Positions 3,996-57,883 of a DNA stretch of 64,000 nt are shown here, piece by piece. Origin of the DNA: Oligoflexia bacterium (GTDB taxonomy: Bacteria; Bdellovibrionota; UBA1018). Numbering within the stretch: position 1 is the first letter of the stretch; each line of letters opens with the position of its first letter. A program made the position numbers and the translations under genes. The DNA is taken from contig CAIUGE010000116.1 of NCBI GenBank assembly GCA_903898645.1, positions 2,965 through 66,964 of the forward strand. Direction: 5' to 3'. A model generated the notes under the pieces. That model was given only the letters and a program-made list of their open reading frames with translations, had not been told where the DNA came from and searched no databases.

Positions 3996-5732
3996 TTAGA
4001 CTGTGTCCCAGGAATACCGTTCCCCAAGCGATGCCTCGTCAGCAAGGGATTTAATATGCTCATCACTATTATTGTCAATCTTACTGAGCAGCCCATGAAC
4101 ACGTGCACGCACCTGATTCGCAAAAGTTTTCAAAATATGAACCTCACTGTCGGCTTTACTCTGCTCAGTGAGTGATGTATTGACACGACTCAAAACGCAA
4201 GCAAACACAAAAAGGTCGATCATGATATCAGCAAGCCTTTTGATCGCAAATTGTTTACCAACAATATGTTTCCCATGTTTCCTGAGAATACGGTCTGCAG
4301 CCATCGCGAGGTCACGCACTGCGCCTTGAAAAAACTCAGCCTCATGAGCAATGACCGGATGGATACTACTTTCAAGTGTATGATGCCCAACGCCTGTCAC
4401 CTGTGAAAGCATGCGCTTACTATAGTCACTCAACACACCAAAACCTTTGATAGGATCATGGAAGATGCCTTCCAGTGAAGAACCCAGATCAGAAAGCTGC
4501 TGTCCAACGTCATGCATGCCTGTGAGTGCAATAAAAAGACGCAGTATGTCATTTGTGCCTTCAAAAATTCTATTTACACGTGAATCACGTACAATCCGCT
4601 CATAGGGGAATTCACACATGTAACCATTACCACCTGCGATCTGGAGTGCCTCGTCAGCCGAACGCCAAAGAGCTTCTGTTGCAAAAACCTTACTGATTGC
4701 CGCTTCGACTGCATAATCCTCGTAACCCTGATCAACAAGTCCTGCCACCATGCTGACAACACTCTCTGTCGCATAGCAGTCAACGACCATGTTACCAATT
4801 TTTTGCTTCACAAGACCGAATTCAGCTATTTTTTGATCAAATTGAACACGCTCATTGGCCTGGATAGTCGCCATCTCAATAAGGCGCTTCATACCCCCAA
4901 CACATCCGCCACCAAGACCTGTACGACCGCTATTAAGTATCTTCATAGCGACTTTAAAGCCCTTACCTACCTCACCAAGCACATTCCCTACAGGGACGCG
5001 CACCTGATCAAAACTCACTGTTGTTGTAGAACTTGCACGAAGCCCCATCTTATCTTCATGCGGACCTGTACTCACGCCAGGCATATCCCTCGTTACAATA
5101 AAGGCCGTCATCATACCTTCAGGTCCATCAGTGCGGGCAAAGACTGTATAAAATCCAGCAATACCACCGTTGGTGATCCATAGCTTCTGGCCACTGAGCA
5201 CATAACTATCACCATCACGTACAGCACGTGTTTTAATACTGGCTGCATCTGACCCCGATCCAGGCTCCGTGAGACAAAAAGCTGCAATAAGCTCCCCTGT
5301 TGCTAGTCGCGGCAAATAGGTCTTTTTTTGCTCAACATTCCCGAAAAGCACAAGCCCCCGCATACCTATAGAGCTATGTGCACCTACCGTCAGTGCAACT
5401 GAGGCATCATAACGGGACAACTCCTGCAAAACGCGCGAGTAGCCCGAAGCACTTAGACCTAAGCCCCCGTACTCTTCAGGGATAATAAGACTAAAAAGCC
5501 CAATTTGACGCATTTCCTGCAAAAAGGCAGCAGGCAATTCACCAGCACGATCCCATGTTCGAAAATCCTTTGCATAGGGAGTAAGCCATGACGCAAAAGC
5601 TGCCATCAGATCTTTCAAAATACCCCTCTCGGAGTCACTCATTTTAGGAAAAGGAAAGATGATGTCTTGCTCAATATGCCCCATTGCCATAGAACGCACA
5701 AAACTACGCTGTTTAATTTCACTCATGACCAC
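3996..5732 (-). CDS. acyl-CoA dehydrogenase (long form with C-terminal extension)
   Basis: ACAD motifs are present: AAFCLTEPGSGSDAAS, QKLWITNGG and the YxxxE/RIFEGTN catalytic region. The protein is 578 aa. Confidence 0.85.
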   Translation of the reverse strand: MVMSEIKQRSFVRSMAMGHIEQDIIFPFPKMSDSERGILKDLMAAFASWLTPYAKDFRTWDRAGELPAAFLQEMRQIGLFSLIIPEEYGGLGLSASGYSRVLQELSRYDASVALTVGAHSSIGMRGLVLFGNVEQKKTYLPRLATGELIAAFCLTEPGSGSDAASIKTRAVRDGDSYVLSGQKLWITNGGIAGFYTVFARTDGPEGMMTAFIVTRDMPGVSTGPHEDKMGLRASSTTTVSFDQVRVPVGNVLGEVGKGFKVAMKILNSGRTGLGGGCVGGMKRLIEMATIQANERVQFDQKIAEFGLVKQKIGNMVVDCYATESVVSMVAGLVDQGYEDYAVEAAISKVFATEALWRSADEALQIAGGNGYMCEFPYERIVRDSRVNRIFEGTNDILRLFIALTGMHDVGQQLSDLGSSLEGIFHDPIKGFGVLSDYSKRMLSQVTGVGHHTLESSIHPVIAHEAEFFQGAVRDLAMAADRILRKHGKHIVGKQFAIKRLADIMIDLFVFACVLSRVNTSLTEQSKADSEVHILKTFANQVRARVHGLLSKIDNNSDEHIKSLADEASLGERYSWDTV

Positions 5733-30053: not shown

Positions 30054-30470
30054 TTACTCTTTCACAAAATCTTTAACGAAGATAATACCCCGATGACCTG
30101 TGATGGGGCAAAAAAATGGATACTCGCCTGGTGTATGGGGCACAAAACTGACCTCTTCAATACTGGTACGCACCTGACGACGAATTTTGAAATCTTCAGC
30201 TATAAAACAAAGTGGTTTTTTTGATGAGGAAGACAAATACAACTTGACAGGCACCTTGGGCACAACAAAAATGGCTTTAGGAAAATAACCTTGGTCACTC
30301 ATCGCAATGGCATACTCTTGAAATGGCCCCTCGAGGTTTTTCATACTCTTATAGGATGCAGGTGCTCGTGTCGGCTGCAGATCTTCATCCACAGCATGGA
30401 AGGACGCTTCAGGGAAAACCTCACCTTGGAAACCATAGGCACATGCAAGCAGGAGAATCAGATTCTTCAC
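30054..30470 (-). CDS. small secreted cupredoxin-like protein
   Basis: Signal peptide, beta-rich, C-terminal CPITGHRGIIFV resembling a cupredoxin Cu-site region. It is 5 nt upstream of the CpaF-like gene on the same strand. Confidence 0.35.
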   Translation of the reverse strand: MKNLILLLACAYGFQGEVFPEASFHAVDEDLQPTRAPASYKSMKNLEGPFQEYAIAMSDQGYFPKAIFVVPKVPVKLYLSSSSKKPLCFIAEDFKIRRQVRTSIEEVSFVPHTPGEYPFFCPITGHRGIIFVKDFVKE

Positions 30471-57144: not shown

Positions 57145-57786
57145 TTACAGGGGACCTATAGCTGTCCAATAGAAAGTGTTTGCCAACACGCTACCATTTG
57201 ACGTTTTAACTCCAACGACAAAACTGGTAGCACTCATTGCACCCCACCCTACACCAGCTCCGATGAATTGCGTGGCCCCAGAAATTCCTGGACCCTGATC
57301 GCTTAAAGTTGCAGTTACATTATAAACTGCTGAAGAAAAAGCAATCGGAAAAGTAATAGTAAAGGCAGCATTAGGCGTTCCTGACATCGTACCGTAAGTA
57401 TACGTTCCCCACTGGAGCAGCAATCCACCCGGCAAGGCAGCATACCCATTTGCCGACTTCAAATACTTTCCATTATTACAAGTTATATTTCCGCTTACTG
57501 CAGCATCCCCACTCACATCCAATGTATGCGCGGGCGCTGAACTCCCAATCCCAACTGACCCAGTAGCAAAATAAATGTTTGAAGAGCTCGCTACCCAAGG
57601 ACTACTGACAGTGCTTGACAGAGCGCTCGTGATAGACGCAAAATTACCCATCATCTGACTCGCCGATATAGGACTCCCGGCTGTAAAATTATAAGGCAAT
57701 GTCACTGAAGTAGCATGTGCTGAAAACAAAAAAAAGAAGCACAAAAAGAGCATCATCTTGCTTGCTTTGTCGAGAATATGCATCAT
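57145..57786 (-). CDS. secreted protein with a phage tail-fibre gp53-like C-terminal domain
   Basis: Signal peptide MMLFLCFFFLFSAHA. The N-terminal motif TLPYNFTAGSPISASQMMGNFASI is shared with the gene at 27949. The C-terminal LPGGLLLQWGTYTYG...FTITFPIAFSSAVYNVTATL matches the conserved LPxGLIIQWG...FPxAF tail-fibre domain. Confidence 0.5.
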   Translation of the reverse strand: MMHILDKASKMMLFLCFFFLFSAHATSVTLPYNFTAGSPISASQMMGNFASITSALSSTVSSPWVASSSNIYFATGSVGIGSSAPAHTLDVSGDAAVSGNITCNNGKYLKSANGYAALPGGLLLQWGTYTYGTMSGTPNAAFTITFPIAFSSAVYNVTATLSDQGPGISGATQFIGAGVGWGAMSATSFVVGVKTSNGSVLANTFYWTAIGPL

Positions 57787-57883
57787 TTACCGCACCTCTT
57801 GCCCGCACTGTAACATCCGCCCTCTCTCACATCAAGTTACAACCTAGTACGCACCATGACGCCAGAACCAAAAATAAGACAAC

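Follow-up and report, generated by a model that had tools for sequence, protein, structure and literature searches.

A short, predicted secreted protein with a constant N-terminal module and a gp53-like tip in uncultured Bdellovibrionota

Introduction

Prey recognition by Bdellovibrio-type predators has only recently been tied to the mosaic adhesive trimer (MAT) fibres of Bdellovibrio bacteriovorus, among them Bd2133, Bd3182, Bd1334, Bd2439, Bd2734 and Bd2740 (Caulton et al. 2024, PMC10769870). MATs are built from a signal peptide, an invariant N-domain that has been proposed to bind an element of the predator surface, a capping-loop β-helix and apparently swapped tips of the S74, TNF-like, lectin or novel types. 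Twenty-one paralogues are known; several of those tested are displayed at the cell surface, and glycans of Proteus are bound by one of the fibres. What fixes them to the predator surface is left as a question in the Discussion of that paper (Caulton et al. 2024, PMC10769870). Here we describe a gene located at positions 57145-57786 (minus strand) of a 64,000-nucleotide stretch of DNA, hereafter the window, from an Oligoflexia bacterium (assembly GCA_903898645.1, contig CAIUGE010000116.1). The open reading frame (ORF) is intact and encodes a protein of 213 amino acids (aa). On balance, we favour the view that this protein is a Sec-exported homotrimeric 'mini-fibre' adhesin in which a constant base carries a variable ligand-binding tip.

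A predicted secreted protein with a gp53-like tip

The original prediction, made from the sequence without database searches, described a secreted protein ending in a phage tail-fibre-type tip, and profile searching bears out the identity of that tip. Pfam PF21882 (Gp53-like_C) matches residues 118-211 (E=3.2e-14); its score of 53.7 bits exceeds the gathering threshold of 24.9, the match spans profile positions 2-83 of 84, and the protein is a member of this domain family. Within PHROG, this C-terminal part has matches in tail-fibre and virion families, and phmmer against the PDB aligned the LPGGLLLQWG...FTITFPIAF signature to gp53 of phage AP22 (4mtm) and the fibre of the R1 pyocin (6cxb).

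Structure prediction agrees with this assignment. The AlphaFold2 (AF2) run was made on the monomer and its overall mean predicted local distance difference test (pLDDT) score is a mediocre 66.8; within the tip, pLDDT is mostly 80-88 and a β-sandwich is seen at residues 114-212. The domain as a whole, a gp53-like or R-pyocin-fibre 'foot', extends from residue 114 to residue 213 (57148..57447, minus strand). The best PDB match to the model in Foldseek was 6cxb (E=1.4e-5, 31% identity, root-mean-square deviation 3.1 over 91 columns), with 4mtm also found (E=2.8e-5) and H-type lectins further down the list, and 55 viral tail-fibre models in BFVD matched at E<=1e-3. The foot is preceded by a short linker (residues 95-113; 57448..57504, minus strand).

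We place the start of the gene at 57786 because a Shine-Dalgarno-like AAGAGGTG (57793..57800, minus strand), a ribosome-binding site of GAGGTG type, can be read 6 nt before the first ATG. Homologues likewise start with M(x)ILNK in the alignment, in agreement with this choice. Residues 1-25 (MMHILDKASKMMLFLCFFFLFSAHA, followed by TS; 57712..57786, minus strand) are predicted by sequence rules to be a Sec/SPase I-type signal peptide, with a basic n-region, a 13-residue hydrophobic core and an A-x-A (AHA) site. The SAHA-TS junction, at which cleavage is predicted between AHA and TS, is kept in all relatives aligned, which fits the secreted status first proposed, and AF2 models the signal peptide as a helix (residues 5-22). 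Reading of the sequence revealed no canonical lipobox, membrane anchor or known sorting motif in the protein. A simple scan detected neither a promoter-like site upstream on the gene's own strand nor a terminator, and no upstream motif is shared across four genes of the family or with the gene for the Gly-rich protein described below.

A family with one N-terminal module and many tips

Among 5.8 billion proteins searched, 38 proved to be related to the 57145-57786 protein, and 36 of these have in common an N-terminal module (N-module) at about 80-90% identity. Mean column identity in this module is 86% over 68 residues in an alignment of 12 representatives. Directly after the motif LDVxGS, at the linker, the alignment breaks: members cannot be aligned beyond it and their C-termini are unrelated. 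Full-length members are 205-352 aa long, with C-terminal parts of 110-250 aa. Pfam matches in these tips are to C1q (five members), Peptidase_S74 (three), Gp53-like_C (three) and BclA_C (one), most others having none, and all-vs-all BLAST of 36 tips gave 20 unlinked clusters. Described at first as stand-alone, the protein indeed lacks phage neighbours, but it is no one-off, being a member of a family with a constant N-module and many unrelated tips.

The model of one C1q-type member, P0008, is a C1q/TNF jelly roll whose top match is C1QL3 (E=1.7e-9), with matches also to the collagen VIII NC1 and Cbln1 heads (E around 1e-9). The SDxxxK autoprotease motif is intact in all three S74 members (P0014, P0018 and P0026). 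Obligate trimerisation is a feature of all three folds (gp53 foot, C1q head and S74 chaperone), and for this reason a trimer would be the natural state to expect of the family.

Comparison of the N-module in four genes for which DNA was compared gave a synonymous divergence (dS) of 0.5-1.0 and a ratio of nonsynonymous to synonymous divergence (dN/dS) of 0.07-0.12, which argues that the module is old and constrained and not the outcome of recent gene conversion or copying. The N-module is under purifying selection. The number of paralogues per genome is taken from co-occurrence in one assembly, ERZ1426645, which holds five members (P0001, P0006, P0011, P0016 and P0022), each of them a single gene with its own, different housekeeping surroundings: mrp, a fliJ-flgE-fliM flagellar cluster, ATP synthase c with PMT, argCJB and one that is undefined.

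Identical family proteins recur in several lake metagenomes, and the family belongs to an uncultured freshwater Bdellovibrionota lineage. Scans with the N-module found no relative among GTDB species representatives and none in IMG/VR viral contigs, and a comparison with 50,697 phage genomes gave a single weak tblastn match. A similar scan of JGI metagenomes returned capping-loop repeats of other fibre proteins, with both halves of the module found together in one ORF (L107, see below). Many of the database entries (P0169-P0176, P0029-P0036 and P0038) are fragments, including ORFs of 61-89 aa with the N-module alone and gene calls that start at an internal methionine (MMGNF..., MSSPW...); these could be contig-end artefacts, frameshifts or pseudogenised copies.

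The two halves of the N-module

The second half of the N-module, residues 61-94 (SSPWVASSSNIYFATGSVGIGSSAPAHTLDVSGD; 57505..57606, minus strand), was identified by profile search as one fibre 'capping-loop' repeat, the capping-loop motif being present as a single copy at residues 76-91. When a profile of this half (SSPWVASSSNIYFATGSVGIGSSAPAHTLDVSG) was compared with 1.84 billion representatives, 21,341 proteins were found at E<=1e-3, mostly giant proteins with tens of repeats, the top ones having 10-50 copies. The profile of the N-module matched three chains in the whole PDB: Bd2133 (8ond, E=1.1e-5), Bd3182 (8ojn, E=0.039) and Bd1334 (8oml, E=2.8). All three are Bdellovibrio MAT fibres, as identified in the data statement of Caulton et al. 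(2024, PMC10769870), and the matches fall exactly on their capping-loop motifs.

The first half, residues 26-60 (TSVTLPYNFTAGSPISASQMMGNFASITSALSSTV; 57607..57711, minus strand), comprises, on the evidence of the family alignment and the AF2 model, an extended segment and a predicted amphipathic helix at residues 42-60. Residues L30, P31, F34, A36, G37, I40-M45, N48 and F49 are invariant in 28 sequences. The helix is modelled with a pLDDT of ~80 and is predicted again in P0008, and the hydrophobic residues M45, F49, I52 and L56, at a spacing of three to four, are compatible with a short coiled coil. Profile searches found nothing related to the first half in the PDB, Pfam, PHROG or the IMG/VR viral contigs. 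The motif is rare: among the sequences fetched it is confined to the family, to one other protein of the window and to the metagenomic ORF L107, and a 50-aa version of the profile found eight short fragments and nothing else in a protein search.

That other protein of the window is a 323-aa Gly-rich secreted protein (27949..28920, plus strand), which has the first half alone, directly after its signal peptide, at residues 26-57 (nt 28024-28119), without a capping-loop repeat. The N-termini of the two proteins, signal peptides included, are identical at 26 of 47 positions (E=7e-11), and the mature sequences alone at 20 of 30 (E=2e-9). In a shuffle test the similarity had z=16.5, a score reached by none of 20000 shuffles. 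A common N-terminal motif had been proposed for these two proteins, and these figures uphold it, exceeding what signal-peptide-proximal low complexity would give; six-frame regular-expression and hidden Markov model scans confined the motif to these two ORFs of the window. The further idea of a shared module needs qualifying: the first-half motif is indeed in both proteins, but the module runs on for ~35 residues more (SSPWVASSSNIYFATGSVGIGSSAPAHTLDVSG) in the 57145-57786 protein, a part absent from the Gly-rich protein. A faint resemblance to the phage tail-collar domain, also suggested at the outset, was rejected, since PF07484 remains unmatched even at E<=10 and the first-half profile has no PDB relative.

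What else is known of the Gly-rich protein is limited to a cluster member at 90% identity or more, other homologues that are weak and low in complexity (E of at least 6e-6) and a sub-threshold similarity to Gly_rich_2 and to the ALK_LTK_GRD (ALK-LTK glycine-rich-domain) family; a PDB search with it came back empty. One possibility is that the N-terminal motif carries it as a further 'cargo'. Genes convergent to that of the Gly-rich protein, at 28924-30470 (minus strand), approach its stop codon to within 3 bp; they encode a T2SSE/CpaF-type secretion ATPase, which stands alone with no other secretion-system genes adjacent, and a cupredoxin-like protein.

In L107 (1467-1955 of JGI contig Ga0137796_10052601), an unrelated ORF that is cut off by the contig edge, a signal peptide leads into LPYTFSPGTTAKSSEVNANFQYLL and from there into a series of capping loops. 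This architecture places the first-half motif at the head of at least one longer fibre outside the family. A further clue comes from the internal units of giant fibres, which read '...ISASNINFSGNLYQNG..SSQWTTSGSNIYYNTGNVGIGT..P...LDVxG'. From this reading the first half may derive from a diverged inter-loop segment of giant fibres, a suggestion that we offer as a lead and not as a result.

Genomic context and host lineage

The neighbours of the 57145-57786 gene encode arginyl-tRNA synthetase (ArgRS), SdhB, SdhA, a metallophosphoesterase, a 4Fe-4S ferredoxin, Mrp/NUBPL and FolE (GTP cyclohydrolase I). No phage genes are present within ±10 kb, and the unannotated neighbours have no PHROG matches; the original prediction had likewise seen no other phage genes nearby. 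A search with ArgRS found 21 metagenome-assembled genomes (MAGs) of Bdellovibrionota (Oligoflexia, Bacteriovoracaceae and Bdellovibrionales) at 51-57% identity, and nothing outside Bdellovibrionota MAGs above ~35%. The host represents a deep-branching, uncultured lineage within the phylum to which Bdellovibrio-type predators belong.

The gene order aminopeptidase, FecR-like, tetratricopeptide repeat, ArgRS ... metallophosphoesterase, ferredoxin, slot, Mrp, FolE recurs in Bdellovibrionota MAGs, and the 57145-57786 gene occupies the variable slot between ferredoxin and mrp. In one relative (L008) the slot holds a gene for a MepA-like murein endopeptidase (14456-15397) and in another (L002) a 72-aa basic, lysine/arginine-rich ORF (11419-11637). 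Since other genes fill the slot in relatives, the 57145-57786 gene is a lineage-specific single-gene insertion into conserved housekeeping synteny. No MAT-like long fibre was found in the window or at the 21 Bdellovibrionota ArgRS loci.

Other features of the window include two ribonuclease inhibitor (RNI)-type leucine-rich repeat (LRR) proteins that match LRR_6, at 11350-13449 (plus strand, E=1.9e-36) and 46181-46777 (minus strand, E=2.4e-18). Genes of eukaryotic or mitochondrial flavour, all on the minus strand at 3996-5732, 19716-20978 and 22404-22979, comprise an ACAD9/ACADV-type acyl-CoA dehydrogenase, a weak, below-threshold match to part of a Ser/Thr protein-kinase domain and an Nfu_N+NifU protein. 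No Rfam families or tRNAs were found in the 64-kb window. At ~46% GC, GC skew is negative in 30 of 32 two-kb intervals and about zero in the other two, and the cumulative skew runs down to -5.1 across positions 1-64000 without a turning point.

How the protein might work

Cleavage of the signal peptide would leave a chain of ~188 residues made up of the ~35-residue motif with its helix, the single capping-loop repeat and the gp53/R-pyocin-type, putatively lectin-like foot. The repeat is of the kind that builds the β-helical shafts of Bdellovibrio MAT fibres and of S74-type phage fibres. Together, the two halves form a constant module that would bring about trimerisation and attach the protein to a shared partner at the cell surface, whilst the foot would serve as the ligand-binding tip, with a surface glycan as its predicted target. 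Paralogues at dispersed sites in the genome combine the same module with at least 20 unrelated tips, which together would equip the cell with a range of short adhesins that differ in specificity. By analogy with MAT fibres and with pyocin or phage fibres, the ligands would most likely be envelope glycans of other bacteria, that is, of prey; bacterial glycans are favoured because the structures nearest to the tip are the feet of pyocin and phage fibres that bind lipopolysaccharide (LPS).

A bolder proposal, which we regard as possible but rather doubtful, is that the ~35-residue motif (TLPYxFxAGxPISASQMxxNF and the helix) serves this lineage as a portable tag, not described before, for surface display or anchoring, and that it addresses at least 20 different trimeric lectin tips and the Gly-rich protein to one docking partner.

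Several points weigh against the mini-fibre adhesin. Oligomeric state, export past the periplasm and surface attachment rest on inference, the Sec signal being the only element of the export route that is visible. The AF2 monomer leaves residues 62-107, which cover the second half of the N-module, unmodelled at pLDDT <50. The first-half motif also heads the Gly-rich protein, where there is no capping loop at all, so that any role for it, as anchor, trimeriser or otherwise, is putative. Family members (205-352 aa, 213 aa here) are three to five times shorter than MATs (626-1959 aa), and the 57145-57786 protein lacks the long (>600 aa) shaft with which a MAT can project from the cell. The N-module, of ~70 aa with a predicted helix, differs from the ~130-aa, β-rich MAT N-domain as published, and its size and helix speak against the two being simply equivalent. 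Finally, a predatory lifestyle is assumed from phylum membership at ~55% ArgRS identity, and the RNI-type LRR proteins of the window are of a kind often indicative of bacteria that associate with eukaryotes.

In a different reading, the protein would be released as a soluble trimeric lectin that acts like a bacteriocin or in a matrix or in aggregation, and the N-module would be a trimerisation stalk that does not anchor it to the producer. The Sec signal, with no lipobox, membrane anchor or known sorting motif seen beside it, is what such a protein would have; proteins as short as these would project little as surface fibres, and TNF/C1q-like and H-type lectin folds are also found in soluble lectins. 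A stalk for trimerisation only, however, would not require ~90% identity and a dN/dS of ~0.1 across paralogues with unrelated tips, and it is established that C1q and gp53 tips trimerise unaided. The presence of the first-half motif on the very different Gly-rich protein also fits a shared address or partner better, and we consider the soluble lectin unlikely.

The eukaryote-like content of the window raises the question of whether the architecture is as proposed and the ligands are instead surface glycans of a eukaryotic host such as a protist, the organism being a eukaryote-associated member of a Bdellovibrionota-related radiation. Eukaryote-like RNI-type LRR proteins are typical of protist-associated bacteria, and two LRR_6 proteins lie in the same window together with other eukaryote-like genes. 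C1q/TNF-like heads are classic eukaryotic recognition folds, and the ArgRS is just ~55% identical to that of any named Bdellovibrionota. Against this, the tip of the 57145-57786 protein has its closest counterparts in fibre feet of R-pyocins and phages that recognise bacterial LPS, and one paralogue adjoins flagellar genes, so that its assembly encodes flagellar genes, as free-swimming predators do. In the MATs of Bdellovibrio, moreover, it is bacterial glycans on which TNF-like tips act (Caulton et al. 2024, PMC10769870). A eukaryotic target therefore seems to us quite improbable.

The C-terminal domain family is overwhelmingly borne by phages or tailocins, but we reject as highly improbable the idea of a functionless remnant of a prophage or tailocin tail-fibre gene, given a signal peptide of the kind that tail fibres lack, an intact ORF with a good ribosome-binding site in conserved housekeeping synteny with no phage gene within ±10 kb, a multi-member family under purifying selection and a module with no relative in IMG/VR viral contigs and one weak match among the phage genomes.

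Comparison with known systems

The R-type pyocin fibre foot (PDB 6cxb, 6cl5) and AP22 gp53 (4mtm) resemble the 57145-57786 protein in their C-terminal ~100 residues, both in fold and in the signature LPxGLxxQWG ... TFPxAF. These feet end long fibres that are assembled on a contractile tail in the cytoplasm, whereas here the foot sits on a 188-residue, predicted Sec-exported chain without tail genes. A phage or tailocin tail fibre as the identity of the protein is ruled out by the export signal and by the absence of tail genes nearby. The family exemplifies phage-type receptor-binding tips (gp53/R-pyocin feet, C1q-like heads and S74-chaperoned tips) taken over by exported proteins of the cell in a deep-branching, uncultured lineage of the phylum.

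The BclA-type exosporium nap proteins of Bacillus have an N-terminal attachment motif, a collagen-like stalk and a C1q/TNF-like trimeric head. By analogy, the mini-fibre family would share with them a short N-terminal address, a trimeric stalk and, in some members, a C1q-like head, the Pfam matches including BclA_C (one member) and C1q (five). The differences are that the mini-fibre family has no collagen repeat, that its host is Gram-negative and that the N-terminal sequences are dissimilar.

The likeness to MATs is closer. Both groups come from the phylum Bdellovibrionota, and in both a signal peptide is followed by an N-terminal region that is constant across the family, with 86% mean column identity and a dN/dS of ~0.1 in the case described here. 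Both have swapped C-terminal tips that fall into S74 and non-S74 subgroups and include TNF/C1q-like tips, both have the VGIGxxxPxxxLxV capping-loop motif and both have many paralogues per genome. Apart from length and N-domain, discussed above, the mini-fibre family differs in having one or two capping loops in place of a long β-helical shaft and in being encoded by dispersed singletons, and a gp53-like foot is not among the HD100 tip types in the entries bd0726-bd3442 of Supplementary Table S1 (Caulton et al. 2024, PMC10769870).

If the bolder proposal of a portable anchoring tag is right, these proteins of ~200 aa would be a minimal form of the predator's prey-recognition fibres and would offer a direct handle on the mechanism by which MATs are anchored. 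A stripped-down, MAT-like design of 70 constant residues and one tip would be much easier to express, crystallise and mutate than a fibre of 1000 residues, and the family isolates the part that is under selection, including a short N-terminal motif held in common with an otherwise unrelated Gly-rich protein. A further gain is a collection of predicted binding domains, at least 20 in number, that are compact and probably trimeric. Taken together, these likenesses suggest, by analogy, a new miniature variant that would work like a MAT, as distinct from a demonstrated member of the MAT family.
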